A stretch of DNA of 64,000 nt from Candidatus Levybacteria bacterium RIFCSPHIGHO2_01_FULL_40_16 (lineage in GTDB: Bacteria; Patescibacteriota; Microgenomatia; Levybacterales; UBA12049). The stretch lies in the NCBI GenBank assembly GCA_001783805.1, contig MFNS01000006.1, positions 34,095 to 98,094 on the forward strand, in the 5' to 3' direction. Positions 7,590 through 57,461 of the stretch are shown here, piece by piece. The translations under genes and the position numbers were made by a program. Numbering within the stretch: position 1 is the first letter of the stretch; each line of letters starts with the position of its first letter. The notes beneath the pieces are model-generated. The model was not told where the DNA came from. It saw only the letters and a program-made list of their open reading frames with translations, and made no database searches.

Positions 7590-8135
7590 TTATCTTACGA
7601 ACTTTTTATAAAGTTTTAGAAATTCCTCATCTTTTTCCAGTAGCTTAGTTTCTTCTTCGCACCATAGGGAGTATTTTCCAGGATTATTTTTTACATCGTC
7701 AACAAATTCCTGCCAATTTACCCATTTAACATCTTCGACTTCGTCGCTATTCGGTTTTGGTTCTTCATCTGTGAAGGCAACCATAACCGGACAAAGTTCA
7801 TTCTCTACAATTCCGTTCATCTCCGCTTTGTAGGAAAAATCGGGTAAGATTTCCTGAACATTATCTAGATCGAGTCCTAATTCAAATTCCAATCTCCTTT
7901 TTGCCGCATCAATATTGGATTCATTTAGCATTGGGTGTCCGCAGACAGAATTAGACCATACCAATGGCCAAGTTTTCTTTTTATGACTTCTTTGTTGAAG
8001 CAATAGCTCTCCTCTTGAATTAAATAGAAAAACGGAAAAACCCCTATGTAGTGGGGTATTTACATTATGAGTTGCGAGTTTTGGGGCAGTACCTAAAACT
8101 TTATTTTGTTTATCAACAAGAACTACTTCTTCCAT
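7590..8135 (-). CDS. idi: isopentenyl-diphosphate delta-isomerase, type 1 (Nudix fold)
   Basis: Matches E. coli Idi block HRGFSVFLFN...WPLVWSNSVCGHPMLNESNIDAAKRRLEFELG. Confidence 0.7.
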   Translation of the reverse strand: MEEVVLVDKQNKVLGTAPKLATHNVNTPLHRGFSVFLFNSRGELLLQQRSHKKKTWPLVWSNSVCGHPMLNESNIDAAKRRLEFELGLDLDNVQEILPDFSYKAEMNGIVENELCPVMVAFTDEEPKPNSDEVEDVKWVNWQEFVDDVKNNPGKYSLWCEEETKLLEKDEEFLKLYKKFVR

Positions 8136-8440
8136 AATGCGATTAAAAAGTTAATTAATAAATAAATTAGTAAAGCTTGCCAAAAAAGAATTGAGATGAG
8201 AACGGTACTAAGAAAAATTGCAATTAGTTCCCTTTGTGATCCGTAAAAATCCAGTAAAAAAGCGCCAATTCTACCAAATACGAAAAAAGCGATAAGTCCG
8301 ATGATTGGAGAAAAAATTACAGGAAGAAGTATTGGGCGTCTGGTAACAAGTCTCACTGCCATAAGCGGGTGAAAAGTTAATCCGAGAAGGGTTTTACTCC
8401 AGATATATGCTACGAAAATAAGAAACGTCCTTTTTCTCAT
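8123..8440 (-). CDS. hypothetical membrane protein (3-4 TM)
   Basis: Hydrophobic ORF co-directional with and downstream of ECF sigma/anti-sigma candidates. Confidence 0.35.
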   Translation of the reverse strand: MRKRTFLIFVAYIWSKTLLGLTFHPLMAVRLVTRRPILLPVIFSPIIGLIAFFVFGRIGAFLLDFYGSQRELIAIFLSTVLISILFWQALLIYLLINFLIALWKK

Positions 8441-8670
8441 AATTTTCCGAAAATTTTTAAAATTAATTCATCGTATCTTTTTCCAAGTACGCCATGAAAA
8501 ATTAAGGTAAGAATAAAAGCCAGAGGAATTAAGATTCTCCAGGGGTGATTTCCAAACCAAAAACTGACAGAGGTAAAAAGTCTTGGCAAAAACATCCCTT
8601 TGATTATTTTTTCTTGTTCTTTAGCCCTTTCTTGAAGTTTATTAAGAAATTGCTGCTCGTTCATAAGCAA
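8437..8670 (-). CDS. putative anti-sigma factor (short cytoplasmic N-terminus + single TM)
   Basis: 77 aa, overlaps 3' end of ECF sigma gene; topology typical of anti-sigma. Confidence 0.35.
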   Translation of the reverse strand: MLMNEQQFLNKLQERAKEQEKIIKGMFLPRLFTSVSFWFGNHPWRILIPLAFILTLIFHGVLGKRYDELILKIFGKL

Positions 8671-9223
8671 GTTTAAAACTCTGCCGAGCCCTGAAGAGGA
8701 GTGACTCTGTTGCCTTGAACGACAAATTAAATAGTGCGGCCAGCGTTTTTACGGACACATTTTCTTCATAATGTAGTCTTAATATTTTTTGATATTTGGC
8801 AGAGAGACTACGGAGAGCAAGTTCGATATTGTCGCGGATTTTATTTTTCTCAAATTGGAATTCCGGTTGATTAATTTCCGATGCAACAATTTGAAGGAAC
8901 GGAACTTGAGATAAGAGTATAGATTTAATTTTTTTCTTACGATAAAAATCAACCATTTTATTGTGGGCAATTCTGTAAAGCCATGCGGAAACATTTTGTT
9001 CCCTTTCAAGGAACGAAAGAGAATCAATTGCTTCCAGGAAAACATCGTTTGTGATCTCTTGCGCGTCTTCTCGCCGCGGGAGTTTCTTAGAGAGGTAAGC
9101 TAAAATCTTTGGTGAGTAAGTCTTGTAAAATTGAATTACCGCCTTGCTATCTCCGACTAAAATCCGCTTTATAAACGATGAGGACATAGGATAGATTATA
9201 AAGCTTTTCTTATAAAAATGCAC
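8642..9223 (-). CDS. RNA polymerase sigma factor, ECF (sigma-70 region 2/4) family
   Basis: Region 2 (DAQEITNDVFLEA, AWLYRIAHN) and region 4 (LRLHYEENVSVKTLAALFNLSFKATESLLFRARQSF); start may be internal Met at 9187. Confidence 0.75.
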   Translation of the reverse strand: MHFYKKSFIIYPMSSSFIKRILVGDSKAVIQFYKTYSPKILAYLSKKLPRREDAQEITNDVFLEAIDSLSFLEREQNVSAWLYRIAHNKMVDFYRKKKIKSILLSQVPFLQIVASEINQPEFQFEKNKIRDNIELALRSLSAKYQKILRLHYEENVSVKTLAALFNLSFKATESLLFRARQSFKLAYERAAIS

Positions 9224-9245
9224 TTTCGAATGATTTTGAGAGATT

Positions 9246-9839
9246 TTGCGACTAAATTATATGACTGAGCGATTAGATCGTGGTTTATCTTCTGTTTTTT
9301 CTGCGGAACAATCCTGCAGGGTCCGCTTTGTAGAACCGAATAACAATCTGGTGGTTCCGGACAGAACAATGCATAAATCAGAGCTGTCTGATAAATTTGA
9401 CGGGTTGGACATAGAATATCTCACTCAAATTAAACTAAGAGAATTGGGGTTTGCTCCTCAAAATGATAAAGAAAAGGAAATGCTCGAGTTTTTCCATAAT
9501 CCCTTAATTCACAGATATCCAGCAGGAGATTCGCCTGCGAGATACTTTATGGAAGTAATTATGGGAAACCATGCAATACTTGCTTCATATCTTCCTCCCA
9601 ATTCGATAACCTCTAATCACAAGCACTCAGATGAATATAAAATTTTAGAAGATTACCATATAACAGGAGGTGAACCTATTCTTAAATTGGATAGTGAAAT
9701 TCACGCATTAAAGAGCGGTATGTCCGTAGAGGTGCCTCTAAATACACCTCATCAGCTTAAAACAGGGGAAAAGCCTGCTTTTACCCTGATTATTATGAAA
9801 AATGCGGGCTTGGTGGATAGAAAAAACTGGCATAGGTAA
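9246..9839 (+). CDS. hypothetical protein, possibly cupin-fold
   Basis: H..H...E...G...H-like pattern in C-terminal half; divergent from sigma gene. Confidence 0.3.
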   Translation: MRLNYMTERLDRGLSSVFSAEQSCRVRFVEPNNNLVVPDRTMHKSELSDKFDGLDIEYLTQIKLRELGFAPQNDKEKEMLEFFHNPLIHRYPAGDSPARYFMEVIMGNHAILASYLPPNSITSNHKHSDEYKILEDYHITGGEPILKLDSEIHALKSGMSVEVPLNTPHQLKTGEKPAFTLIIMKNAGLVDRKNWHR

Positions 9840-9884
9840 CTTGCTTTGGAGTTAATCTTATAGTATAATTTATCTTCCTAAGCT

Positions 9885-10667
9885 ATGAAGAACATAACAT
9901 TAATTAAGCTGGGAGGATCGGTAATTACGGATAAGGACACTCCTTACAAGGCAAAGATAAGTGTGATAAGAAGATTAGCAAAGGAAATTAAGGGTTCAGG
10001 CATAACTTCTTTGGTTATTGCGCATGGGAGCGGGAGTTTTGGGCACACATCGGCAGTCAAGTATGGGGGCAAAAAGGGATATAAAAACAAATGGGGAATC
10101 GCTAAAGTTGCCAGAGATGCGATGGAGATTAATAGAATTGTGATGGATACCCTAATTGATGAAGGATTGCCGGCCGTTTCTTTAAGACCAATGAGTATGA
10201 TGATGACAAGTAAAGGCAGGATCAAAAAAAACTTATTTGAAATCATTGAAGAAGTTTTAAATCAAGGATTAATACCGGTTGTTTACGGAGACGTGATTTG
10301 GGATAAAGCATGGAAAAGCACTATCTATTCGGGGGAGACAACTTTAAATGAAATTGGAATATATTTATCTAAGAAAGGCTATAAGGTAAACAAAATTATT
10401 CAGGTGGGGCAAACGGATGGCGTTTATGATTTACAAAAGGAAACTATACCTTTGATAAACAAAAAGAATTGGGATAAAATTAAAAAATATCTTTTTGAAA
10501 ACAAAAGAGCTGATGTAACCGGCGGAATGCAGCACAAAATAGAAAACGCTTTAAAGATCGCAAAAATAGGAATAAATACGTTTTTGATAAACGGTAATAA
10601 AGCGAAGGAGTTATCAAACGCCATTTTGGGAAAATCGGTTAAGGGAACGATTATAAGAAAGAATTAA
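9885..10667 (+). CDS. isopentenyl phosphate kinase (amino-acid kinase family)
   Basis: IKLGGSVIT, HGSGSFGH (catalytic His region), PVVYGDVI, DVTGGM, FLINGNKA blocks align with archaeal IPK. Confidence 0.7.
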   Translation: MKNITLIKLGGSVITDKDTPYKAKISVIRRLAKEIKGSGITSLVIAHGSGSFGHTSAVKYGGKKGYKNKWGIAKVARDAMEINRIVMDTLIDEGLPAVSLRPMSMMMTSKGRIKKNLFEIIEEVLNQGLIPVVYGDVIWDKAWKSTIYSGETTLNEIGIYLSKKGYKVNKIIQVGQTDGVYDLQKETIPLINKKNWDKIKKYLFENKRADVTGGMQHKIENALKIAKIGINTFLINGNKAKELSNAILGKSVKGTIIRKN

Positions 10668-10672
10668 GTATT

Positions 10673-11353
10673 ATGAATAAAGAAATTATAGTTCCAGGCA
10701 ATGAAAAATTGTTCTCAGCAAGACAAACAATAGAGTCAGAGAAAAGGCCGAGTGCAGGAATAGCGATGGTGATCATTGGAATAGATCCAAATAAGAATGG
10801 GGAAAATATTAATAGTCCAGTTCTATGGACTAACATTGAAAAGAAGCCCAAGCTTGAAACAGATAGGCTTGCAGGGCAGATTTCTTTTCCCTCTGATACG
10901 CGAAAAATTGGAGAAGATAAACTTTCCAATATGTTAGGAACGCTACCAGAGTTCAGTGGAAACGATGGGTTAATAAGGAGTTTATCTTTTACGTCATCAT
11001 CTTATATAAATGAAGCAATTAAAATAAAAGAGAATCATTATGATCTGATGATAGTATTTTTGAATGGATTTCTGGCTACCCCAATTATCCCCCTGGATGG
11101 GAATGAGGTTAGTGCTAATGGTTGGATGCGATTAGAGGAATTACGTAAACTGCAAAAAGAAAATCCTTCCATGCTGAGAAGTTTTGTAGAGCAAATTATA
11201 GGCGGAGAGCTTATTGGTAAGGCGGTTGATGATTATTTTAGATTTCCGAAAGAGAGGATTCCTTTCTCTACTATTTTGCCACGTAATTTTTCTATAGCTA
11301 ATTTTTATAAAGTAAGAGAAAAATTGCCCGATGTGATTGGGCGCTCTCAATAA
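10673..11353 (+). CDS. hypothetical protein (co-transcribed with IPK)
   Basis: 226-aa ORF 5 nt after IPK stop; no motif I can name confidently. Confidence 0.45.
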   Translation: MNKEIIVPGNEKLFSARQTIESEKRPSAGIAMVIIGIDPNKNGENINSPVLWTNIEKKPKLETDRLAGQISFPSDTRKIGEDKLSNMLGTLPEFSGNDGLIRSLSFTSSSYINEAIKIKENHYDLMIVFLNGFLATPIIPLDGNEVSANGWMRLEELRKLQKENPSMLRSFVEQIIGGELIGKAVDDYFRFPKERIPFSTILPRNFSIANFYKVREKLPDVIGRSQ

Positions 11354-12046
11354 TCATTTTCCGAACCTTCTTTGGCGGCGGGAATATTCTTCAATGGCGT
11401 TTTCAATATCTTTATCATTAACGTCCGGGAAATGTTTTTGGAGGAAAATGTATTCTGCATAAGCCGCCTGCCAAATCATTAGTCCCGAAGTTCTTTGTTC
11501 TCCGGATGTCCTAATAATTAAATCCGGATTGGGATAGGGTTGATTTGCAGTGTCCAAATAATTGTTAAATTGCTCAATTGTTAAATTGTTAATATTCTGT
11601 CGAGATATTTTTTTAATTCCGCGAATCACTTCATCTTGTCCGCCGTAGTCAAGGGCGATATTTAAAATATAATTTTTAAAATTTTTTGTTTTTTCTTCGG
11701 AATCTTGAATTTTCTCCAGTAATTTTTTTGAAATCCTGTCTTTTCTTCCCAAATGAATTATTCTGATTTTTTCTTTTAACGCTTGTTTAAGATTCCTCTC
11801 AATAAATGTTTCGTACATTTTCATTAAATACGCAACTTCTTCTTTACTCCTATTCCAATTTTCCGTAGAAAATGCCCACATAGTCATAGTGTGAACACCA
11901 AGGGAACGGATTTTTTTCCCGATTTTTACCGCAACATCAAAACCTTTCCTATGTCCTTCAAAACTCGGAAGTCCATGCTCTTTCGCCCAGCGCCTGTTCC
12001 CGTCGGGGATGATAGCAACATGATTTGGGATAGTTGAAACTGCCAT
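11354..12046 (-). CDS. uppS: undecaprenyl diphosphate synthase
   Basis: HVAIIPDGNRRWA, MWAFSTENWNR, LIIRTSGEQRTSG motifs; start taken at internal Met. Confidence 0.85.
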   Translation of the reverse strand: MAVSTIPNHVAIIPDGNRRWAKEHGLPSFEGHRKGFDVAVKIGKKIRSLGVHTMTMWAFSTENWNRSKEEVAYLMKMYETFIERNLKQALKEKIRIIHLGRKDRISKKLLEKIQDSEEKTKNFKNYILNIALDYGGQDEVIRGIKKISRQNINNLTIEQFNNYLDTANQPYPNPDLIIRTSGEQRTSGLMIWQAAYAEYIFLQKHFPDVNDKDIENAIEEYSRRQRRFGK

Positions 12047-12081
12047 TTGCACATTATACCATCGGATGTTATAATACCAAA

Positions 12082-12765: not shown

Positions 12766-13017
12766 ATGAGTCAAAAACTTGTAGAAAGAATCGGCTGGGC
12801 AGCCTCCGCAATAGCGATTCTCATGTGGTTTTCCTTTATTGATCAAATCCGCTTAAATCTATCCGGACAAAAAGGTTCGCTACTAATCCCAATAGTGGTT
12901 ACGATAAACTGTATTTTGTGGACAATGTTTGGATTGGGGAAGAAAAACTGGCAGATAATTTCAGCTAATGTGCCGGGAATATTTCTCGGCGTCCTCACCG
13001 CGCTCACCGCGCTATAA
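12766..13017 (+). CDS. SemiSWEET / PQ-loop family small membrane transporter
   Basis: 83 aa, 3 TM; aligns with SemiSWEET (IGWAASAI...FIDQI..., LW..FGL, SANV). Confidence 0.45.
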   Translation: MSQKLVERIGWAASAIAILMWFSFIDQIRLNLSGQKGSLLIPIVVTINCILWTMFGLGKKNWQIISANVPGIFLGVLTALTAL

Positions 13018-13384
13018 TTTTTTGGCAGTTTTTACTTCCACAATTACATTTAAAATTAACAAACGCTCCGATTTTCGCATAGTCCGAAGTTACCTCTTCT
13101 CCTTTGCGAATATTTTTTAAAGCAATATCGCAATTATTTTTTACATAGGTATTTGGATCGCAAGAATGATTGACGTATCTTTCCGGAGGTTGCATTAAAA
13201 GGTATTTATTACTGTTTATTTTCTGGATATAATGTTTTTCTGTCTTCGGTAGCTTATCTATTTCGGATCTTACAATAATTTTCGGATTCCATTTAAGAGC
13301 AATCTCACCTTTTTTAAAATCTTTTACAGCAAATACGCCCTTTTTATTAATTTTTGATTTTTTAACGAGAATATGATTGCTCAT
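13004..13384 (-). CDS. SET domain protein (putative protein-lysine methyltransferase)
   Basis: NHSCDPN signature and EEVTSDY, C-terminal Cys cluster (post-SET-like). Confidence 0.7.
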   Translation of the reverse strand: MSNHILVKKSKINKKGVFAVKDFKKGEIALKWNPKIIVRSEIDKLPKTEKHYIQKINSNKYLLMQPPERYVNHSCDPNTYVKNNCDIALKNIRKGEEVTSDYAKIGAFVNFKCNCGSKNCQKIIAR

Positions 13385-13409
13385 TAATAATATACTTGTT
13401 CAAAAAGTG

Positions 13410-13480
13410 TCGGGATGCAGGGAATTGAACCCTGGCTACCGCACCCCCAGCGCGGCGTACTACCGTTATACGACATCCCG
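13410..13480 (-). tRNA. tRNA-Pro (anticodon GGG)
   Basis: Cloverleaf folded by hand: 7-bp acceptor CGGGATG/CATCCCG, anticodon loop CTGGGGG, T-loop TTCAATT; no encoded CCA. Confidence 0.8.
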
Positions 13481-13497
13481 TTCTTGCTTTGCAATTT

Positions 13498-13526
13498 GTC
13501 TTTAGTTCTTTGTCTTTAGCCTTTGG
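13498..13526. repeat. CTAAAGAC-containing repeats (inverted orientation) downstream of four-helix-bundle gene
   Basis: gtctttagttctttgtctttag; same 8-mer as upstream repeats 13882..14019. Confidence 0.5.
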
Positions 13527-13867
13527 TTGGATAAAGATTTTATCAAAGCATTTAATTCTTTTCCAACTATTTCACATTTTTCTAATGCAGTTCTTATGTC
13601 AATTTTGAATAATTTCTCAGCGATTTTTAATCCCGCAACAGTCTCGTATAGCGATTTTAAAGCTATCCTTAAGAAACTTTTGAATTCAATATCTCCTAAT
13701 GCTCCTGTTCCTTCTGCTATGTTTAAAACGATAGATGTTGTAGATCTTTTTAGTTGATTTATTAAAGCAAATTTTTCTTCAATAGGTAAATTTTCTGTAA
13801 GTCTGTATACTTCTTCGACTAAGATTAAAGCATTATGATAAACCCTCAGTTTTTCAAATCTATACAT
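13502..13867 (-). CDS. four-helix-bundle protein (TIGR02436 / Avd-like, 23S rRNA-IVS protein family)
   Basis: 121 aa, all-helical, family-typical YRLTENLPIEEKFALINQLKRSTTSIVLNIAEG region. Confidence 0.55.
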   Translation of the reverse strand: MYRFEKLRVYHNALILVEEVYRLTENLPIEEKFALINQLKRSTTSIVLNIAEGTGALGDIEFKSFLRIALKSLYETVAGLKIAEKLFKIDIRTALEKCEIVGKELNALIKSLSNQRLKTKN

Positions 13868-30387: not shown

Positions 30388-31938
30388 TTGAGTGACAGCC
30401 TGTATAATATTGATATGTTTTGGGTGGATAGCGTAGCTGCAGAATTAAAAAAGAGAAAATTATCTCTGGAGTGGGTAGATGATATGAAAACCCCATCCGG
30501 CAGAATCCACGTTGGCGCTCTACGCGGTGTAGTAGTCCATGATTTGGTTTTCAAAGCATTAAAGGAGTTGGGTGTTAAGACAAAATACACTTATATTTTT
30601 GACAATCACGATCCAATGGACTCTCTGCCCGTATATCTTCAAAAAGAAAAATTTGAAAAATATCTGGGAATGCCGCTTTTTAAAATCCCTTCTCCAGCTG
30701 CTGGATTCAGCGACTATGCCCAGTATTATGCAAAAGAATTTATGGAAGTTTTTAATAAAATCGGCTGCCATCCTGAAATTTTATGGTCAACGGATTTATA
30801 TAAAAGCGGAAAAATGAACCCCCTGATAAAAGAATGTTTAGATGAGGCTTCCGAAATAAGAAAAATTTATGAAGATCTTTACAAGAAAAAAATTGACAAA
30901 AAATGGTATCCTTTTCAGCCGTATTGTCCAAATTGCAGTAAGGTTTCGACGACAAAAGTTTATAACTGGGATGGGGAAAAAGTTTCATTTACATGCGAAA
31001 TAGACGCTGTTGTCTGGACAAAAGGATGCGGATTTAAGGGGAAAATGTCACCTTTTAGTAATGAAAAAGGAATTGCAGGCAAGCTTTCCTGGAAAGTGGA
31101 GTGGGCTGCGAAATGGAAAGTTTTAGGCATAACCGTTGAAGGAGCAGGCGAAGATCATATGAGCAAGGGCGGATCGCATGATTTGGCAAGCCTTATCTGC
31201 GAAAGAGTGATTAATTATCCTGTTCCGTACCCTTTGCCTTATGCGTTTTTTTTAATAGGAGGCAGAAAGATGTCTTCTTCGAAAGGCCGCGGGTCGTCCG
31301 CTCCTGAAATGCTTGAAATTTTACCGCCGGAAATCCTGCGCTTCTTAATGGTAAAAACAAAAGTCAGTCAACAGATTAATTTTGATCCCAGCGAAGACAC
31401 TGTACCCAAACTTTTTGATGATTATCAAAAAGCAGCCGAGGCATATTTTGAAAAGAAAGATGAGAACCTAGCAAGGATTTTTAAATTATCGCAAATAGAT
31501 AAAGTAAAAAAACCACCGAGCATTAGATTCTCCGTTTTGGCACAATGGGTGCAAATGCCCAACATGGAAAAAGAAATAAAGAAGGAAAGTCTTGAGGAAT
31601 GGGAGTCTTATGCAAAAATTTGGGTTGAAAAATATGCTCCAAACGAAATTAAATTTTCTATCCAAGAAAAAATACCAGAGGCTTCTAAAAAACTTTCTCA
31701 AAAACAAAAAGAATATTTGCTTAAAGTCTCCTCATTTTTAGATAATAATTGGGACGCAGAGGAATTTCAAAAGAAACTTTATGAATGGGCAAAGGAGATA
31801 AGCTTATCCCCTACAGAAGCATTCCAAGCATTATATGTGTCGCTTATTGGTAAAGATTACGGACCAAAAGCAGCATGGCTAATTTTAAAACATAAAGATT
31901 TTGTAAAAAAACGGTTTCTTGACGCCGCTAATTCATGA
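30388..31938 (+). CDS. lysK: lysine--tRNA ligase, class I (archaeal type)
   Basis: Class I signatures: HVGALRG (HIGH-like) and KMSSSKG (KMSKS). Confidence 0.85.
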   Translation: MSDSLYNIDMFWVDSVAAELKKRKLSLEWVDDMKTPSGRIHVGALRGVVVHDLVFKALKELGVKTKYTYIFDNHDPMDSLPVYLQKEKFEKYLGMPLFKIPSPAAGFSDYAQYYAKEFMEVFNKIGCHPEILWSTDLYKSGKMNPLIKECLDEASEIRKIYEDLYKKKIDKKWYPFQPYCPNCSKVSTTKVYNWDGEKVSFTCEIDAVVWTKGCGFKGKMSPFSNEKGIAGKLSWKVEWAAKWKVLGITVEGAGEDHMSKGGSHDLASLICERVINYPVPYPLPYAFFLIGGRKMSSSKGRGSSAPEMLEILPPEILRFLMVKTKVSQQINFDPSEDTVPKLFDDYQKAAEAYFEKKDENLARIFKLSQIDKVKKPPSIRFSVLAQWVQMPNMEKEIKKESLEEWESYAKIWVEKYAPNEIKFSIQEKIPEASKKLSQKQKEYLLKVSSFLDNNWDAEEFQKKLYEWAKEISLSPTEAFQALYVSLIGKDYGPKAAWLILKHKDFVKKRFLDAANS

Positions 31939-48791: not shown

Positions 48792-49520
48792 ATGAAAGGT
48801 GTTGTTTTGGCGGGGGGTCTTGGCACAAGACTCTATCCCTTAACCCATGTAACTAATAAGCATCTGCTTCCAGTTTATAATAAGCCAATGATTTTCTATC
48901 CTATTCAGACTCTGGTGAATGCAGGAATAACGGAAATCTTAATTGTTACTTCAGGACCTCATGTTGGTGATTTTCTGGGAGTGCTTAAAAATGGAAAGGA
49001 TTTAGGGGTAACACATTTGGAATATGCTTATCAGGAAAAACCGGATGGCGGAATTGCGGACGCGCTTTCTCTGGCAGAGGCTTTTGCGGATGGAGATTCG
49101 ATTACGGTTATTTTGGGAGATAACACTACGGATGCAGATATTTCACAGGCGGCTAGAAGATTTAAGGATGGAGCAGTTGTTTTTCTTAAAAAAGTTCCGG
49201 ACCCAAAGCGTTTCGGAGTACCCCTATTTGATCCTAAAAATCCAAAAAATATAATCAAAATTGAGGAAAAACCAAAAGAGCCTAAATCTGATTATGCCGT
49301 TACAGGTATCTATATTTACGATAATAAAGTTTTTGAGTACGTTAGGAAATGCGATCCGAATTTTGCCGGAAGAGGAGAATTAGAGATTACAGAGGTAAAT
49401 AATTACTATATTAACGAAAAAAAACTCAGATGGGAAGAGCTAAATGGATATTGGAGCGATGCCGGAACTTTTGATAGTCTTTTTAAATCCAGCAGTTATT
49501 GGGCCACCCAAAAAAAATGA
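48792..49520 (+). CDS. rmlA: glucose-1-phosphate thymidylyltransferase (short form)
   Basis: MKGVVLAGGLGTRLYPLT nucleotide-binding motif; RmlA-like. Confidence 0.8.
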   Translation: MKGVVLAGGLGTRLYPLTHVTNKHLLPVYNKPMIFYPIQTLVNAGITEILIVTSGPHVGDFLGVLKNGKDLGVTHLEYAYQEKPDGGIADALSLAEAFADGDSITVILGDNTTDADISQAARRFKDGAVVFLKKVPDPKRFGVPLFDPKNPKNIIKIEEKPKEPKSDYAVTGIYIYDNKVFEYVRKCDPNFAGRGELEITEVNNYYINEKKLRWEELNGYWSDAGTFDSLFKSSSYWATQKK

Positions 49521-50059
49521 GCCAATGGAAAATTATTTCTCAAAAATCCATACTTAAAGCGAAACTTTTTGACGTTAAACAAATAGATTTTGAAAATAAA
49601 TCTGGAAAGAAAAAGACGCATCGTGTGGCGGAAAGAGTTCCAATTGTTTCAGTTTTTCCCCTGACCGACTCATACGAAATTTATTTGCTTTCCGAATATA
49701 GATACATGCTGAAGAAAACAATTATAGAAGCTGTAGCTGGGCATATGGAAAAAAAAGAAACTACAATTGCCGCAGCAAAAAGAGAACTAAAAGAAGAGGC
49801 AGGCATAGAGGCTCAACAGTTGGAAGAAATAGCCAGAATTGAAATGTCGGGCAGCGTTTTTAAGAGTAAAGTCCACCTTTTTTTGGCAAAAGGATTGGAA
49901 ATAGGAGATAATAAACCTGATGATGACGAAGAGATATCTGTTATTAAAATGCCTTTAGCGCTGGCCGTAGAAAAAGTTATGTCGGGAGAAATTAATCATG
50001 CCTCAAGCGTGATAGGTATATTAATGCTTGATAATTTAAGAAGAGAGAAAAAATTATAA
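49517..50059 (+). CDS. Nudix hydrolase
   Basis: Perfect Nudix box GHMEKKETTIAAAKRELKEEAGI; embedded between rmlA and rmlB. Confidence 0.7.
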   Translation: MSQWKIISQKSILKAKLFDVKQIDFENKSGKKKTHRVAERVPIVSVFPLTDSYEIYLLSEYRYMLKKTIIEAVAGHMEKKETTIAAAKRELKEEAGIEAQQLEEIARIEMSGSVFKSKVHLFLAKGLEIGDNKPDDDEEISVIKMPLALAVEKVMSGEINHASSVIGILMLDNLRREKKL

Positions 50060-50061
50060 TT

Positions 50062-51075
50062 ATGAAACTTCTAGTTACGGGTGGAGCAGGATTTATAGGA
50101 TCCAATTTTATTCTTTATTGGATGAAGAATTATCCGCAAGATAGAATTGTTAATTTGGATAATCTTACTTACGCGGGGAATTTGGAAAATCTTAAAGAAG
50201 TTGAGAAGAATCCCAACTATAAATTCATTCATGGAAACATTTGCAATTTAAATATTGTAGGCGAGGCAATGAGGGGTATAGATACGGTTGTGCATTTTGC
50301 TGCAGAAAGCCATGTCGATAGGTCAATCCTGAAGCCATCCGATTTTATTGTGACAAATGTTGTTGGCACCCAAGTCTTGTTGGATAGCGCCTTGAAGCAT
50401 AAGGTGAAGCGTTTTCACCATATTTCTACAGATGAAGTTTATGGAAGCCTTAAACTTAATGATCAGAGTAAATTTAATGAACGAACAAATTATAATCCCA
50501 ATAGTCCATATTCGGCAAGTAAAGCCGGGTCAGATCATTTAGTTAAAGCGTATAGCGAAACTTATGGTCTTCCAATTACAATTACTAATTGCTCAAACAA
50601 TTTTGGTCCGTATCAATTCCCGGAAAAATTTATTCCATTGGCAATAACAAATATTTTAGAGGACAAAAAGGTTCCGGTATACGGAGACGGGCTGTATGTA
50701 AGGGATTGGCTCTATGTGATTGATCACTGCAGAGCAATAGATCTAGTTTTAAATAAGGGCAAAGTTGGGGAGACATATTTGGTAGGCGGAATGACGGATG
50801 ACATCTCTAATCTGGAGGTGGTTAAAAAAATTCTGAAGATTATGGGTAAACCGGAAAGCTTTGTAGAGCATGTTAAAGATAGACTCGGACATGACCGTCG
50901 TTATGCGGTTAATTGGTCAAAAATAGAAAAAGAATTAGGCTGGAAACCCCTTCACGATTTTGATGAGTGGCTTGAAAAAACTATTGCTTGGTATAAAGAA
51001 AATGAAAAATGGTGGAAGGATGTAAAATCAGGCGATTACAAAAAATACTATCAAGAGCAATATGGAAAATTATGA
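50062..51075 (+). CDS. rmlB: dTDP-glucose 4,6-dehydratase
   Basis: TGGAGFIGSNF, YSASKAGSD (YxxxK), RmlB-like throughout. Confidence 0.9.
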   Translation: MKLLVTGGAGFIGSNFILYWMKNYPQDRIVNLDNLTYAGNLENLKEVEKNPNYKFIHGNICNLNIVGEAMRGIDTVVHFAAESHVDRSILKPSDFIVTNVVGTQVLLDSALKHKVKRFHHISTDEVYGSLKLNDQSKFNERTNYNPNSPYSASKAGSDHLVKAYSETYGLPITITNCSNNFGPYQFPEKFIPLAITNILEDKKVPVYGDGLYVRDWLYVIDHCRAIDLVLNKGKVGETYLVGGMTDDISNLEVVKKILKIMGKPESFVEHVKDRLGHDRRYAVNWSKIEKELGWKPLHDFDEWLEKTIAWYKENEKWWKDVKSGDYKKYYQEQYGKL

Positions 51076-51938
51076 AAATTTTGGGAACGGGACTAGATGG
51101 GCTTGTTGGGTCAAGAATAATTGAGCTTTTAAGCGGTAAGCATGAGTTTGAGAATCTCAGCCTCAGTACGGGAGCGGACATTACGGATAGGAATGCAATT
51201 CTCCAAAAAATCAAAAACTCGGATGCTCAAATCATGCTTCACTTAGCCGCGAAAACCGATGTTGATGGATGCGAATTGGATAAGCCATTAGGAGAAAAAG
51301 GAGATGCTTGGAAAATTAATGTGTTTGGAACACAAAACGTAGTTGACGGATGTTCGGAGAGTAATAAAAAAATAATTTATATTTCTACGGATTTTGTTTT
51401 TGATGGAACAAAAGAAGCTTATTCGGAAGAAGATGCTCCAAATCCGCTCAGCTGGTACGCCAAAACAAAATATGAGGGAGAAAAAATCGTCCAAACTTCA
51501 AAAATTCCCTGGATCATTGTCCGTATTGCCTCTCCCTATAGGGCAGTATTCAAAAAATTAGATTTTACTCGCGCGATTCTTAAGCGTTTACAAGAAGGAC
51601 TTTCTGTAGTAGCGGTTAAGGATCATATTTTTACTCCGACATTTATTGACGATATTGCCTTGGCAATCGACGTTCTGATTGCAGATAATTTACAGGGCAT
51701 ATTCCATGCCGTTGGGAGTCAGAGCTTAACACCTTTTGCTGCCTCTATTCTGATAGCAAAAGAATTTAGTTTGGATTCATCTAAAATCACTGAAACTAGA
51801 AGAGCTGAGTTTTTTAATAATCGAGCGCCCAGGTCTTTCCAACTGGCGCTGAAAAATGATAAAATACAAAGATTAGGAGTAAAAATGAAGACGTTTGAAG
51901 AAGGACTGAGAGAGATAAAAAAACAAGGGATAATTTGA
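51072..51938 (+). CDS. rmlD: dTDP-4-dehydrorhamnose reductase-like (RmlD family)
   Basis: ATGA overlap with rmlB; LGTGLDGLVGSRI Rossmann motif, YAKTKYEGE (YxxxK). Confidence 0.7.
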   Translation: MKILGTGLDGLVGSRIIELLSGKHEFENLSLSTGADITDRNAILQKIKNSDAQIMLHLAAKTDVDGCELDKPLGEKGDAWKINVFGTQNVVDGCSESNKKIIYISTDFVFDGTKEAYSEEDAPNPLSWYAKTKYEGEKIVQTSKIPWIIVRIASPYRAVFKKLDFTRAILKRLQEGLSVVAVKDHIFTPTFIDDIALAIDVLIADNLQGIFHAVGSQSLTPFAASILIAKEFSLDSSKITETRRAEFFNNRAPRSFQLALKNDKIQRLGVKMKTFEEGLREIKKQGII

Positions 51939-52034
51939 AATTTTAAATTTGCAATTTTCAATCAAATCTAAATTTTAAAATTAAAACATTAAAAATTCAT
52001 TAAAAATTAAAAATTTTAAATTGAAAATTAAGTT
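51939..52034. repeat. 96-nt A/T-only low-complexity heptamer-like repeat tract (AAATTTT/AAAATTA units) filling rmlD-ugd intergenic
   Basis: Essentially G/C-free; periodic aaatttt, aaaatta, aaaattc units. Confidence 0.5.
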
Positions 52035-53327
52035 ATGACAATAACTTTTGTAGGACATGGGTATGTAGGTTTGGTAACCGCTTCTGTTTTTGCAGATCTC
52101 GGCAACACAGTTTGGGTTATCGGACATACCAAAGAAAAGATTGAAAATCTCAAAAAAGGCATATTACCCATTTATGAACCGGGACTTGAAGAAATTGTCA
52201 GAAGGAATGTTAAAGCAAAAAGACTATTGTTTACTCTGGATTATAAAGAATCTGTTCCAAATTCAGATGCTGTTTTTATAACAGTTGGTACCCCTCCAAA
52301 ACCGACAGGCGAAGCTGATTTGTCGATTGTTTTTGAAGTCGCCAAGAAAATCGGAGAGAATCTGGATGGATATACCGTGGTCGTAACAAAAAGTACGGTA
52401 CCGGTTGGAACAAATAAAATAATCAATGAAATAATTGCTGCGGCAAAACCCGCAAAAGCAAAGTTTGACATCGCATCTATTCCTGAATTCTTAAGAGAAG
52501 GACAAGCCATATCGGATACGCTTCATCCAGATAGAATTGTAATCGGTACCAATTCCAAGCCCGCAGAGAAATTACTGATTGAACTTCATAAGTCTATCGA
52601 TGGAAGCTATGTATTGACCAATATCGAAACTGCGGAAATGATTAAGTATGCTGCCAACTCATTTCTCGCCACAAAGATTTCTTTTGCGAATGCAATTGCT
52701 CATCTGTCAGAGCTAACCGATGCGGATGGATCAAAAGTTTTAGAGGCAGTGGGGCTTGATAAACGGGTTGGCAGTCAATTCTTGCTTGCGGGAGCAGGAT
52801 ATGGAGGAAGCTGTTTCCCAAAAGATGTAAAAGCCATGATAACAATTGCAAAAAGATCAGGATACGATTTTTCCCTTCTTAAAGCTGTTGAGGAAATTAA
52901 CCAACAGGCAATGCATGGTATAGTTGAAAAAGCAAAGAAGATGTTGGGCGGGAAGGTAAAAGACAAAACGATTGGGATACTTGGCTTATCCTTTAAGCCC
53001 GACACGGACGATATGAGAGATGCTCCTTCAATCTTTATCATAAATAGCCTTCTTAGAGAAGGCGCAAAAATAAAAGCTTATGATCCTATTGCGATGAATA
53101 ACGCAAAAAGAATTCTAAGAAATGTTGATTTTCAACCTGATTCTTATTCTGTTGCCCAAGATTGCGACATTCTGATTATAATAACCGAATGGAATGAATT
53201 TAGACAACTTGATCTAAGGGAAATAAAAAAGTATATGAGCAAACCTGTCCTTCTGGATGGAAGAAATATTTATGATCCCCGGAAATTAAGAGAAATGGGA
53301 TTTATATATACTGGAGTTGGTCGATGA
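52035..53327 (+). CDS. ugd: UDP-glucose 6-dehydrogenase
   Basis: VGHGYVGL NAD motif, catalytic GGSCFPKDV. Confidence 0.85.
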   Translation: MTITFVGHGYVGLVTASVFADLGNTVWVIGHTKEKIENLKKGILPIYEPGLEEIVRRNVKAKRLLFTLDYKESVPNSDAVFITVGTPPKPTGEADLSIVFEVAKKIGENLDGYTVVVTKSTVPVGTNKIINEIIAAAKPAKAKFDIASIPEFLREGQAISDTLHPDRIVIGTNSKPAEKLLIELHKSIDGSYVLTNIETAEMIKYAANSFLATKISFANAIAHLSELTDADGSKVLEAVGLDKRVGSQFLLAGAGYGGSCFPKDVKAMITIAKRSGYDFSLLKAVEEINQQAMHGIVEKAKKMLGGKVKDKTIGILGLSFKPDTDDMRDAPSIFIINSLLREGAKIKAYDPIAMNNAKRILRNVDFQPDSYSVAQDCDILIIITEWNEFRQLDLREIKKYMSKPVLLDGRNIYDPRKLREMGFIYTGVGR

Positions 53328-54295
53328 ATCCTTCCATGAAAAAAGTTTTAATAACAGGAATTACCGGGTTTGCAGGAAGTTATCTTGCGCAACACCTCCT
53401 CTTGACCAAAAAATATAACATCAGCGGGACTTACCTATTTGGAAAAAGTTTAAGTAACGTTGAATATGCAGAAGGTAAATTAAACCTAATAAAAGCAGAT
53501 TTGTCTGAAGAAAAAAACGTGCTTGATATTATTCAAGATGTTTCTCCGTCAATAATTTTCCATTTAGCCGCACTAACGTCTCCGGCAGACAGTTTTAAAA
53601 ATCCAACGACAGCTATAACCAACAATATCTCCCTACAGGTAAATCTACTGGAGGCAGTAAGAAAGCATAATCTATCCAACACAAAAATTTTGATTGTTTC
53701 ATCGGCAGACATCTACGGACGGGTTGCAAAAAACAATTTACCTATTGACGAAGAAACGCCTTTGATACCAACCAGTCCCTACAGCGTGTCTAAAATAGCG
53801 CAGGATTTTTTAGGTCTTACCTATTTTTTGACCTACAAACTTAAGATAATAAGAGTAAGGCCCTTTAATCATATTGGACCCAGACAATCTCCGAATTTCG
53901 TTGTTTCCGCGTTTGCCAAACAGATAGCTGAAATAGAGAAAGGTATAAGAAGGCCGGTTTTGAAAGTCGGCAATCTTCAAGCAAAAAGAGATTTTACGGA
54001 CGTAAGAGATATGGTTAATGCATACATTTTAGCTGTTGAGAAGGGGGAAGATGGAGAAGTTTATAATATAGGATCGGGTATCTCTTATAAAATATCTGAT
54101 ATTTTGAATAAATTAATTTCCATGTCTTCTTCTAAGATAAAGATAGAAAAAGACGAAACTTTATTTAGACCAAGCGATAATCCTGATCTGGTATGTAATG
54201 CTGGTAAATTTATTAGCCTTACAGGCTGGAAACCTCAAGTTCCTATCGAAACGACTCTCAAGGAAACTCTGGACTATTGGAGAAATATAATTTAA
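53324..54295 (+). CDS. GDP-4-dehydro-6-deoxy-D-mannose reductase-like (Rmd / GMD-family SDR)
   Basis: ITGITGFAGSYL, YSVSK (YxxxK), PFNHIGPRQ; adjacent to gmd. Confidence 0.5.
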   Translation: MNPSMKKVLITGITGFAGSYLAQHLLLTKKYNISGTYLFGKSLSNVEYAEGKLNLIKADLSEEKNVLDIIQDVSPSIIFHLAALTSPADSFKNPTTAITNNISLQVNLLEAVRKHNLSNTKILIVSSADIYGRVAKNNLPIDEETPLIPTSPYSVSKIAQDFLGLTYFLTYKLKIIRVRPFNHIGPRQSPNFVVSAFAKQIAEIEKGIRRPVLKVGNLQAKRDFTDVRDMVNAYILAVEKGEDGEVYNIGSGISYKISDILNKLISMSSSKIKIEKDETLFRPSDNPDLVCNAGKFISLTGWKPQVPIETTLKETLDYWRNII

Positions 54296-54313
54296 AATTA
54301 AATAGGTACTTTT

Positions 54314-55279
54314 ATGAAGAAAGCTTTAATAACAGGAATTACGGGACAAGACGCATCATACCTTGCGGAATTTCTGCTTACAAAAGGATATAAAGTTTTT
54401 GGAACAACAAGAAGATCCAGCACGGTTAACAATGAGAGAATAGAACATATCCAGGATAAAATTACTATTTTACAAGGAGACTTGTTGGATCAGGGGTCGT
54501 TGTCTTCAGCGCTTTTGGAGTCTGAACCTGACGAAGTTTATAATTTAGCAGCTCAATCTTTTGTTCAGACATCTTGGAATCAGCCTGTTTTGACTGGAGA
54601 ATTTACCGCTTTGGGAGTGACCAGGTTGCTTGAGGCAATCAGAACTGTAAATCCCAAAATAAAATTCTATCAAGCATCCAGTTCGGAAATGTTTGGTAAA
54701 GTAACGGAGACTCCGCAGAAAGAAACGACAAGATTCCATCCAAGAAGTCCTTACGGTGTGGCCAAAGTTTACGGCCATTACATAACGATGAATTATCGAG
54801 AAAGTTTTGGTATTTTTGCCTGTTCGGGTATGATGTTTAATCATGAATCTCCCCGCAGGGGTTTGGAATTTGTGACCAGAAAGATAAGCCATGCAGTTGC
54901 GAGAATAAGCCTTAAAAAGCAGGAGCATCTTGAACTTGGAGCGCTGGAGCCAAAGAGAGATTGGGGATTTGCAGGTGATTATGTTGAGGCGATGTGGCTC
55001 ATGCTTCAGCAAGAGAAAGCAGATGATTATGTAGTAGCAATGGGAGAAAATCACAGCGTTAGGGAATTTTTGGATTTGGCTTTTAAAACAGTTGGAATTT
55101 CGGATTGGAGTAAGTATGTTGTCTCCAATAAAACGTCTCACATGCGGCCTGCAGAAGTTGACTATTTAATAGGGGATGCGAGCAAAGCCAAAAAAGTATT
55201 GGGATGGAAACCGAAAACAAGCTTCAAAGAACTGGTTGAAATGATGGTTAAAGCCGATTTGGTGCTGGAGAAGAAGTAG
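54314..55279 (+). CDS. gmd: GDP-mannose 4,6-dehydratase
   Basis: [38 protein letters not shown]: near-canonical GMD. Confidence 0.85.
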
Positions 55280-55337
55280 AAATAAATCCCGCACCAACCC
55301 CATCGTTTAGTTCCAAGACAAGATTTAATATAAAATT

Positions 55338-56312
55338 ATGGATAAATCAAGAAAAAGAGTATTGGTAGCAGGTGGTGCGGGATTTATTGGTTCGCATTTA
55401 TGCAAAAGTTTATTAGACGGGAATTACAAAGTAATCGCAATAGACAATCTTCTGACAAGTACTAAAGATAATTTAAAAGATCTTCTAAAAAATCCTGAAT
55501 TCACATTTTTAGAGCATGATGTTACCGACCAAATTTCAAATTTCAAATTTCAAATTTCAAATTTGGACTATATCTTCCACTTGGCAAGTCCTGCATCCCC
55601 AAATCAAAAAAGCGCAAGGAGTTACATAAATCATCCAATAGAAACTTTACTTGCAAATTCACTTGGAACATATAATCTTTTGGAATTAACCCGTCAATTT
55701 AACGCTAAATTTTTATATGCTTCTTCATCCGAAGTTTACGGAGATCCCGCAATATCTCCTCAAAAGGAAGATTATTTTGGTAGTGTAAATCCAAATGGAA
55801 TAAGATCTGTGTATGATGAGGGAAAAAGATTTGGAGAAGCAATTACATCTGGGTACGTACGGAAATATGGTTTGGATGCTCGCATAATTCGTATTTTTAA
55901 CACTTACGGACCAATAATGCTGGCTGATGATGGAAGGGTGGTGTCTAATTTCATTAACCAGGCAATAGAAAATAAGCCGATTACAGTTTATGGAAAAGGT
56001 ACTCAAACAAGAAGTCTTTGCTATGTTGATGATATGGTTTCCGGAATAAAACTGGCAATGCTGACTCCGAATACCAAGGGAGAAGTTTTTAATTTAGGTA
56101 ATCCGGATGAGCGAAGCATTCTAGATATTGCAAAGCTTATTAAGAGTCTGACCAATTCAAAATCAAAAATTGTTTTTGAAGATTTGCCTATCGATGATCC
56201 AAAATCCAGAAAGCCTGATATCGCCAAAGCAAAAAGAATTTTAGGGTGGGAACCAAAAGTCTCAACAGAGAGAGGCTTACGAAAAACCATAGATTATTTT
56301 AGAAACATATGA
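55338..56312 (+). CDS. UDP-glucuronate decarboxylase (UDP-xylose synthase, UXS/ArnA-decarboxylase-like SDR)
   Basis: GGAGFIGSHL, HLASPASP, YDEGKR (YxxxK), RIFNTYGP; carries heptamer-encoded insert ISNFKFQISN. Confidence 0.7.
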   Translation: MDKSRKRVLVAGGAGFIGSHLCKSLLDGNYKVIAIDNLLTSTKDNLKDLLKNPEFTFLEHDVTDQISNFKFQISNLDYIFHLASPASPNQKSARSYINHPIETLLANSLGTYNLLELTRQFNAKFLYASSSEVYGDPAISPQKEDYFGSVNPNGIRSVYDEGKRFGEAITSGYVRKYGLDARIIRIFNTYGPIMLADDGRVVSNFINQAIENKPITVYGKGTQTRSLCYVDDMVSGIKLAMLTPNTKGEVFNLGNPDERSILDIAKLIKSLTNSKSKIVFEDLPIDDPKSRKPDIAKAKRILGWEPKVSTERGLRKTIDYFRNI

Positions 56313-57436
56313 AAATAGTGATCATCCCCGCAACTTACAATGAAAAAGGCAATATTGAACGATTGATTACGATTCTCGAAACAGAAGTTTTTCCAAAGCT
56401 CAAGAATCACGATATGTATATTTTGGTGGCTGATGACAATTCTCCGGATGGGACCGCGGATGAAGTAAAAAAGTTGATGAAAAAATGGGCGAATATCGGT
56501 ATCTCAAGTGGCATAAGGAATGGATTGGGAGCAGCCTACATTAGGGGGATGACGTATGCGGTTGAAAAATTAGGCGCCGATGTAATGTTTGAAATAGATG
56601 CGGACTTACAGCATGATCCACACAAAATTCCTGAATTTATTAAAAAAATTGAACAAGGATACGATATGGTTATAGGAAATCGGTACAGTGATGGCGGTTC
56701 GATTCCTGAGAATTGGCCTCTGATTCGAAAAATATTTTCAATTGCTGCCAATCTTTTTGTCAGAACTGTCTTTACGAAATTTTCCGTGCATGATTGGACA
56801 GGCGGATATAGGGCTTTAAAAAAGGAGGTTTTTCTTAAGGAGAAACCTAGGCTTACTAATTTCAGGGGATACATATTCCAAATTTCTTTTTTGCATAAAG
56901 CCGTAAGAGACGGATTCAAAATTGGAGAAGTTCCATTTCATTTTAGCGATAGGACTTTGGGCAGTTCCAAAATTGCCCCCTTAGGGTACATACTAGATGT
57001 AGTTGAATATGTGGTTATTTCAAGAATTAAGGAGTTGATTTTTGGAAAATTCGGAAAATTTTTAGTGGTTGGAGGATTGGGATTTGTTATAAATGCCGGT
57101 TTGTACGAGGCGTTGGTAAGGAATACCAATCTTCCTCTTGCGGTTTCTAATTTGATAGCCGCCCAATTTGCAATCTTTTCAAATTTTAACTTCAACAACG
57201 CATGGACATTTAAAACCCAAAAGGCAAACAGCATCTTTTCCTACTTCAGGAAAATGATAGGTTTTTTTACAACATCAAATATAGGAGTGATCCTTATCCA
57301 ATCGGGAATAATTCAGCTTGGAGATGTATTATATGGTGAAAAATATTACAGAATTTATTTTCTCATTGGAACATTTTTTCTCTTAATTTGGAATTTTACA
57401 ATGTATAGTAAGATCATTTGGAAAAAGAAGACCTAA
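56309..57436 (+). CDS. polyprenyl-phosphate glycosyltransferase, GT2 (DPM1/ArnC-like) fused to GtrA-like C-terminal domain
   Basis: N-terminal GT2 (VIIPATYNE, DDNSPDGT, DADLQHDP); C-terminal 4-TM GtrA-like. Confidence 0.7.
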   Translation: MKIVIIPATYNEKGNIERLITILETEVFPKLKNHDMYILVADDNSPDGTADEVKKLMKKWANIGISSGIRNGLGAAYIRGMTYAVEKLGADVMFEIDADLQHDPHKIPEFIKKIEQGYDMVIGNRYSDGGSIPENWPLIRKIFSIAANLFVRTVFTKFSVHDWTGGYRALKKEVFLKEKPRLTNFRGYIFQISFLHKAVRDGFKIGEVPFHFSDRTLGSSKIAPLGYILDVVEYVVISRIKELIFGKFGKFLVVGGLGFVINAGLYEALVRNTNLPLAVSNLIAAQFAIFSNFNFNNAWTFKTQKANSIFSYFRKMIGFFTTSNIGVILIQSGIIQLGDVLYGEKYYRIYFLIGTFFLLIWNFTMYSKIIWKKKT

Positions 57437-57461
57437 GGCCTCAATCTTAATTCAAAATAAT

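Follow-up and report, generated by a model that had tools for sequence, protein, structure and literature searches.

Polyprenyl-phosphate carriers are needed by all cells for wall building, and the C5 source of the ultra-small bacteria of the candidate phyla radiation (CPR) is not established. The closest described system is the CPR gene clustering reported by Hoshino & Gaucher (2018). These authors found that CPR, mainly Microgenomates, carry mevalonate (MVA) genes together with an archaeal-type isopentenyl phosphate kinase (IPK), that the MVA genes cluster with cis-IPPS, and that IPK stays next to type-1 isopentenyl-diphosphate isomerase (IDI-I) in species lacking most MVA genes (PMC6107057). 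The CPR IPK homologues were described there as enigmatic and functionally uncharacterised, and their characterisation as critical (PMC6107057). Here we analyse a stretch of 64,000 nucleotides from Candidatus Levybacteria (hereafter the window) in which the genes for type-1 IDI (idi), IPK and the cis-polyprenyl diphosphate synthase UppS (uppS) lie together. Because Hoshino & Gaucher reported this synteny in CPR (PMC6107057), the core clustering is a further instance of a published pattern and not a new finding. What appears to be newly seen, with no description found elsewhere, is a strictly linked Nudix-fold partner of IPK, the fusion of that partner with IspH, and the association of idi with an extracytoplasmic function (ECF) sigma factor. 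Our literature search returned no later paper characterising a CPR IPK, nothing on Levybacteria in connection with mevalonate or isoprenoids, and nothing on CPR in connection with undecaprenyl.

The host group, Candidatus Levybacteria (CPR/Microgenomates), is represented here by a small groundwater genome of metagenomic origin, and the G+C content of the window is ~37%. Proteins of the locus are identical to entries in three Candidatus Levybacteria metagenome-assembled genomes (MAGs; OGH24338-40 and others), in whose records IPK and its downstream neighbour, here called hyp226, are annotated only as 'hypothetical protein'. All three isoprenoid genes fall inside 4.5 kb, directly after the ribosomal S9 gene (Table 1). 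Their positions had been given in an earlier note made from the letters alone, and they are borne out by the open reading frames (ORFs) and by curated family cut-offs. The uppS start at 12046 in that note agrees with the ATG at which the gene callers begin; the longest ORF extends to 12109 (TTG start). The same note placed an ECF sigma module and two hypothetical genes between and beside the three. The sigma module is indeed present, but four genes separate idi from IPK, namely the ECF sigma gene, two membrane-protein genes (s75 and TM105) and a weakly matching cupin gene. The single gene between IPK and uppS, which had been read as a plain hypothetical, is there as noted, but its product is a conserved companion of IPK with a Nudix fold, joined to IspH in close relatives.

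Table 1. Coordinates of the isoprenoid cluster, of further features of the window, and of the fusion gene in related loci (window positions unless a locus is named)
Feature	Position	Strand	Basis or remark
idi, type-1 isopentenyl-diphosphate isomerase, 181 aa	7590..8135	-	NF002995, TIGR02150; last gene of ECF-s75-TM105-idi unit
TM105, 105-aa membrane protein	8123..8440	-	at least 2 hydrophobic segments; no Pfam/NCBIfam match
s75, 75-aa single-pass membrane protein, just 3′ of ECF sigma	8437..8664	-	hydrophobic segment at residues 44-62
ECF-type sigma-70 factor, 181 aa as called	8642..9187	-	Sigma70_r2, Sigma70_r4_2, TIGR02937; longest ORF to 9223
Cupin-like protein, 192 aa	9261..9839	+	Cupin_2 just under cut-off
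Isopentenyl phosphate kinase (IPK), 260 aa, archaeal-type amino-acid-kinase fold	9885..10667	+	NF040647
hyp226, Nudix-fold protein without catalytic Nudix box	10673..11353	+	downstream partner of IPK, 5-nt gap
uppS, cis-polyprenyl (undecaprenyl-type) diphosphate synthase, 230 aa	11354..12046	-	TIGR00055, PF01255; convergent with hyp226
PAP2-family phosphatase, 176 aa	39629..40159	+	PF01569 on called gene
GT2-GtrA polyprenyl-phosphate glycosyltransferase	56309-57436	+	PF00535 and PF04138
PMT_2/ArnT-like glycosyltransferase	57462-59015	+	PF13231
hyp226::IspH fusion, 531-533 aa	L006:10748-12349; L102:3132-4727; L103:3087-4682		slot between IPK and UppS

The genes are tightly packed. On the minus strand, the ECF sigma gene overlaps s75 by 23 nt, s75 overlaps TM105 by 4 nt and TM105 overlaps idi by 13 nt. 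On the plus strand, cupin is followed after 45 nt by IPK and this after 5 nt by hyp226, whose stop abuts that of the convergent uppS with no gap. For comparison, GTDB reference genomes were scanned with an IPK alignment, which gave 80 loci (L numbers below) in which ORFs were called and clustered and recurrent clusters named by Pfam, and a metagenome scan with a hyp226 alignment supplied loci selected via hyp226. The clustering of idi, IPK and uppS is not due to chance, because ~25 related loci, from assemblies independent of one another, show the same arrangement.

Family scores identify the kinase as an archaeal-type IPK. It reaches 206 bits against the IPPK_Arch model NF040647 (cut-off 120), whereas the models of its sister kinases score far lower (FomA 49.8 bits against a cut-off of 550, ArgB 24.6 and ProB 20.9 bits), and on these scores a FomA-like or other amino-acid-kinase identity was rejected. 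Its best solved relatives are the archaeal IPKs 7lnt, 3ll9 and 3k4o, with E values of 1e-32 to 1e-34, as against 1e-11 for FomA. The motif blocks IKLGGSVITDK (residues 7-17) and HGSGSFGH (residues 47-54) are intact, and IKLGGS and HGSGSFGH are invariant in 15 relatives; K8, G10, G11, S12, K17, H54, D136, D210 and K218 are invariant residues among the relatives. H54 aligns with His60 of the M. jannaschii enzyme (H66 in the chain, H60 in native numbering), a residue that stabilises the terminal phosphate and is stated to do so in all IPKs (PMC9654404). In a rough neighbour-joining tree, the protein falls in a monophyletic Levybacteria-type clade within a group of CPR and DPANN sequences, apart from the Chloroflexota and main archaeal clades. 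The earlier note had named an archaeal-type IPK on the strength of its HGSGSFGH and KLGGS blocks, and the equivalog cut-off, the archaeal IPK structures and H54 confirm this. A grouping with aspartate, glutamate or UMP kinases, which would have spoken against the assignment, was not observed, scores and relatives alike being those of a true IPK, and the phylogeny proposed there as a check places the protein in the CPR IPK clade.

The two flanking enzymes are equally well defined. IDI exceeds its curated cut-offs (NF002995, 224.6 bits against 127; TIGR02150, 151 against 105.8), and its closest solved structures are the E. coli and Salmonella enzymes (3hyq/1hx3, E 5e-42 to 1e-41). Alignment to 3hyq shows that NTPLH, SVCGHP, ENELCP and a Trp are kept, motifs whose catalytic Cys/Glu and metal-ligand roles are those of E. 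coli IDI. UppS scores 222.5 bits against TIGR00055 (cut-off 109.55) and 9e-71 against PF01255, with the S. aureus and M. luteus enzymes as closest solved structures (E 1e-53 to 1e-54; 1.5e-54 for S. aureus 3wyi); aligned to 3wyi, it retains DGNRRWA, FSTENW, RTSGEQR and the C-terminal RRFG.

The position downstream of IPK and hyp226 is occupied by alternative cassettes: a type-A UppS alone, trans-IPPS with a type-B UppS, or trans-IPPS alone. The window UppS belongs to the type-A group. It is 75-86% identical to the type-A proteins of L093, L091 and L096 and 40-45% identical to the type-B proteins of L092 and L008, and trans-IPPS adjoins the type-A gene in none of the type-A loci. L092 and L093 stand at the same distance from the window (RecA 93%, IPK 78%), yet they carry different cassettes, of type B and type A, respectively. 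The UppS of a distant CPR, L077, clusters with type A, which may reflect gene transfer. In four Woesebacteria-type loci (L022, L024, L032, L039) the UppS ORF reaches 407-458 aa, roughly double the usual size, which points to a putative extra domain; a conserved PEGA-MreB-WecG-ECF block that precedes IPK is a further common feature of this group.

No upstream pathway is visible around the cluster. Searches with tblastn found no MVK, PMD/MVD, HMGR, HMGS, AACT, AcnX, UbiD, IDI2, trans-IPPS or LytB in the 64-kb window (E > 0.03), and the lists of Pfam families, which span almost the entire window and the next 10 kb past its 3′ end, contain no family of the MVA or methylerythritol phosphate (MEP) pathway. 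The combination of MVK, phosphomevalonate decarboxylase and IPK that marks the alternative MVA pathway was thus not found within the 64 kb and the 10 kb beyond the 3′ end, nor was the archaeal combination of AcnX, UbiD-type decarboxylase and IPK across the window (tblastn E > 0.03). Apart from the fused IspH described below, the same lack of MVA and MEP pathway genes holds for every one of the ~25 Levybacteria-type loci. Their core (window, L005-L012, L014, L015) consists of S9, IDI1 on the minus strand, IPK and hyp226 on the plus strand, and UppS on the minus strand, in some preceded by a minus-strand trans-IPPS, so that the slot from IDI to UppS holds only IPK and hyp226, with or without trans-IPPS.

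Other lineages keep more of the pathway in place. MVA genes lie within 6 kb of IPK in 8 of the 18 other CPR-type loci. L051 has the order MFS-HMGR-HMGS-thiolase-DUF35-MVK-MVD-IPK, and L013 and L017 have tIPPS-UppS-...-MVD-IPK-IDI2. In archaea and Chloroflexota, AcnX/UbiD, MVK, IDI2 and tIPPS are found near IPK. Two long CPR contigs retrieved via HMGR (L088, L089) read IDI1-HMGR-HMGS-AACT-DUF35-MVK-PMVK-MVD-(...)-UppS, without IPK. In MVA-positive CPR, therefore, the pathway genes stand either between IDI and UppS or directly beside IPK. Among the best 120 of ~8,000 HMGR matches to a CPR profile there is no Levybacteria sequence, a weakly informative result, and none of these 120 lies on a 776-kb contig such as the one that carries the genes of the window.

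The gene that fills this slot together with IPK is hyp226. Its product has the Nudix alpha/beta/alpha fold. In the register of the Nudix box (GX5EX7REUXEEXGU), the glycines G1 and G22 persist, but 14 of 18 sequences have Asn at E19, position E20 carries a hydrophobic residue and R15 and E16 show no conservation, so that the catalytic REUxEE glutamates are missing. Because these glutamates are lost, the predicted protein is classed as Nudix-fold and not as a Nudix hydrolase. Pfam gives no PF00293 match, a profile search against PDB sequences gives no match, and hhalign detects no relationship to the IDI of the window. Residues E81, E93, W151, R169 and D220 are invariant. The family is small (112 representatives among 1.84 billion proteins), and hyp226 evolves fast, with 35-53% identity where IPK shows 61-79% and RecA 85-94%. 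Its linkage to IPK is strict in both directions: hyp226 lies directly 3′ of IPK in 11/11 Levybacteria-type loci selected via IPK, and IPK lies directly 5′ of hyp226 in 12/12 metagenome loci selected via hyp226. Five longer members of the family (P0260, P0265, P0269, P0270 and P0305; 390-451 aa) share a second, C-terminal domain of ~180 aa without a Pfam match, a recurrent fusion partner present in none of the fetched loci.

In two close species, represented by three assemblies, the hyp226 domain is fused to IspH (L006, and protein P0307 in L102 and L103). IspH is the terminal enzyme of the MEP pathway. The fused IspH passes TIGR00216 with 211 and 223 bits (cut-off 187.85) and keeps the three cluster cysteines, and upstream of it these loci have the same module of ECF sigma, s75, TM105 and idi genes. 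Outside the fusion loci, IspH is found in none of the loci fetched, nor in the window (LytB tblastn). As a natural fusion, the protein appears to link hyp226 to the chemistry of hydroxymethylbutenyl diphosphate (HMBPP), isopentenyl diphosphate (IPP) and dimethylallyl diphosphate (DMAPP). Because close relatives fuse hyp226 to IspH, we infer that the hyp226 protein probably either binds a C5 prenyl (di)phosphate or acts on it. Beside the two routes named in the earlier note, the alternative MVA pathway and isoprenoid alcohol salvage, both of which stay possible on the sequence covered, the fusion opens a third that is absent from that note: a connection with the last MEP step or with HMBPP.

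Beside the observed enzyme identities, intact motifs, conserved synteny and local lack of upstream genes, we set a proposal for the role of the cluster, to which we give an even chance: it would be an end-steps module that recaptures or salvages C5 phosphates for carrier lipid, in Levybacteria that would have lost the MVA block. IPK would use ATP to convert isopentenyl or dimethylallyl monophosphate (IP, DMAP) to IPP or DMAPP, IDI would balance the two diphosphates, and UppS would extend an allylic primer by IPP units, yielding the C50-55 polyprenyl diphosphate on which the assembly of cell wall and glycans draws. IPK would then not be the last step of a neighbouring mevalonate operon but would act with the co-transcribed hyp226 as a device for C5-phosphate recapture or salvage. 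The C5 phosphates might come from a host or the environment, or be recycled within the cell, and the lineage would have lost the MVA genes that other CPR keep in the same slot.

Several points weigh against this proposal. A transporter for isoprenoid alcohols, or a kinase for their first phosphorylation, was not identified. A hydrolase role for hyp226 is doubtful, because the catalytic Nudix glutamates are missing. A trans-IPPS to supply the UppS primer was not found in the window by tblastn. The sequence in view amounts to ~74 kb, whereas the genome measures at least 776 kb and could hold MVA or MEP genes in the remainder, and the HMGR evidence consists of the best 120 of ~8,000 matches. Finally, most Microgenomates have MVA enzymes according to Hoshino & Gaucher (PMC6107057).

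This last point, and the same authors' statement that MVA genes can be split into two clusters (PMC6107057), favour a reading in which the cluster is the downstream half of a de novo route: an MVA pathway of the phosphomevalonate-decarboxylase/IPK type (or the AcnX/UbiD type) would be encoded elsewhere and end with IPK. Other CPR provide a precedent, having an MVD-like decarboxylase directly 5′ of IPK or an HMGR-HMGS-AACT-MVK-MVD-IPK operon (L013, L017, L034, L039, L051). However, CPR that have both usually keep the genes together (PMC6107057), no MVA gene lies near IPK in the ~25 Levybacteria-type loci or the 74 kb seen here, and a Levybacteria HMGR is absent from the best 120 of ~8,000 matches; we regard this route as rather unlikely. 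The fusion of hyp226 to an intact IspH in close relatives with the same cluster points in another direction. IPP and DMAPP could come from MEP genes elsewhere, with IPK and the Nudix-fold protein forming an IP/IPP buffering loop that tunes flux into UppS, much as plant IPK and Nudix hydrolases set the balance of IP/DMAP to IPP/DMAPP (PMC8248349). Yet the MEP pathway is reported to be sparse in CPR (PMC6107057), the window holds no MEP gene, the fusion loci are the only fetched ones with IspH and hyp226 has lost the catalytic Nudix box, and a buffering loop of this kind seems unlikely as well.

It is also conceivable that neither IP nor DMAP is the true substrate and that the IPK homologue acts instead on, for example, a longer prenyl phosphate, hydroxymethylbutenyl phosphate (HMBP) or a phosphonate, its place beside idi and uppS having a different cause. 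Substrate promiscuity is a known trait of IPKs, and with IspH fused to the neighbouring protein in relatives, HMBP might come into consideration. We judge this very improbable: the IPK equivalog model is passed while FomA stays at 49.8 bits against its cut-off of 550, the phosphate-binding His and glycine loops are conserved, and the conserved synteny with IDI and UppS indicates C5 chemistry.

Recapture or salvage by an end-steps module, if true, would be a case in which an episymbiont depends metabolically on late isoprenoid intermediates. A more speculative form of the idea, which we put forward with little confidence, is that Levybacteria keep a last-step cassette only (IPK, with which the archaeal MVA routes end, in some strains IspH, and IDI and UppS), fed by IP, DMAP or HMBPP scavenged from a host. 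Within this cassette, hyp226 would be a new non-hydrolytic handler of C5 prenyl phosphates that works with IPK and IspH, and the type-A UppS, which stands without an adjacent trans-IPPS, may need no farnesyl diphosphate primer.

The ECF sigma factor upstream of idi is recognised by Sigma70_r2 (1e-13), Sigma70_r4_2 (8e-9) and TIGR02937 (81.9 bits against 42.9). The s75 protein is anti-sigma-like in position only, matching no anti-sigma family in Pfam or NCBIfam, and it is conserved along with the sigma factor among relatives. TM105 accompanies the sigma gene in L005, L006, L010, L091, L094, L096, L099, L101 and L103. The placement of idi under a sigma/anti-sigma-like module suggests control by envelope stress. 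The module and the cupin gene are insertions that vary among relatives. The cupin match is weak (Cupin_2, 26.7 bits against a cut-off of 27.2) and has no meaningful PDB sequence counterpart; related proteins at 27-42% identity occur in L005-L007, L090-L093, L096 and L101 and were not detected in the other Levybacteria-type loci, and L102 and L103 hold an unannotated 167-aa ORF in the cupin slot. ECF sigma genes, often followed by a small membrane protein, adjoin IPK, IDI, UppS or MVA genes in several CPR lineages (L010, L016, L020, L022, L024, L025, L032, L039, L083, L089). These recurrent sigma factors form three or four sequence groups, with 23-39% identity between groups.

Scanned for promoters and terminators, the region at 7.3-12.9 kb gave no more matches than shuffled sequence did. 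TATAAT boxes stand 6-7 nt before the ATG of uppS, of a SurA-like gene and of the ECF sigma gene, and 15 nt before IPK (12047-12081, 9188-9205 and 9860-9884), leaving no room for a Shine-Dalgarno sequence between box and start. This spacing suggests leaderless or very short-leader mRNAs.

Elsewhere in the window, the PAP2-family protein is a candidate polyprenyl-diphosphate phosphatase of the carrier-lipid cycle. A large nucleotide-sugar island (48792-59015) comprises genes for an NTP transferase, a NudE-like Nudix protein, RmlB, RmlD, UDP-glucose dehydrogenase, GDP-mannose dehydratase and two more epimerases, followed by the GT2-GtrA and PMT_2/ArnT-like genes. The products of these last two show weak matches to polyprenyl-phosphate sugar transferases, and they likely use the polyprenyl-phosphate carrier. 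The ORFs at 50-59 kb had been considered as MVA genes, whose sizes they fit, and were rejected as nucleotide-sugar enzymes and glycosyltransferases. Between the SurA-like gene and recA (12766-13867) lie genes for an 83-aa SWEET/MtN3-like half-transporter (weak Pfam match), a SET-domain protein (13004-13384), tRNA-Pro(GGG) (13409-13480) and a protein of the 23S-rRNA-IVP family (13502-13867). The lysyl-tRNA synthetase at ~30415-31938 is of class I (PF01921, archaeal-type); the TTG at 30388 that begins the longest ORF is not the gene-caller start.

Two further observations concern the compared loci. MVA-UppS or IPK-UppS clusters have tandem arrays of 5-8 T4SS_pilin-family genes as immediate neighbours in L088 (18003-20815), L089 (4721-7275), L016 and L020. 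Many TPA_asm MAGs titled 'uncultured Gammaproteobacteria' or 'Pseudomonadales' have CPR-type content and CPR-like IPK, IDI and UppS (L006, L007, L010, L014, L015, L017, L020, L021, L029, L034, L051, L077, L083), and these labels are probably wrong.

Set against known systems, the locus shares with the CPR synteny of Hoshino & Gaucher the same three genes, the same bacterial group and an IPK beside IDI-I without most MVA genes (PMC6107057). It adds little to that synteny, but the linked Nudix-fold partner, the IspH fusion and the contrast with MVA-positive CPR operons provide testable handles; neither partner nor fusion, nor ECF sigma linkage or salvage, is mentioned in that paper (PMC6107057). 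The alternative MVA pathway of Chloroflexota and haloarchaea (Dellas et al. 2013, as cited in PMC6107057) uses the same IPK family, for the last step from IP to IPP. MVD-like-IPK pairs occur in the CPR loci L013, L017, L039 and L051, whereas neither this locus nor any other of Levybacteria type has a decarboxylase, MVK or HMGR in the vicinity of IPK. In plants, too, IPK is paired with a protein of the Nudix superfamily (Henry et al. 2015, 2018, as cited in PMC8248349). Here, by contrast, the pairing takes the form of strict bacterial operon linkage, and hyp226 lacks REUxEE. The classical CPR MVA operon (L088, L089) has the same flanks, IDI-1 and UppS, and sometimes an ECF sigma gene upstream. 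In the Levybacteria locus the whole MVA block is missing from between these flanks, and its slot is filled by IPK and hyp226.

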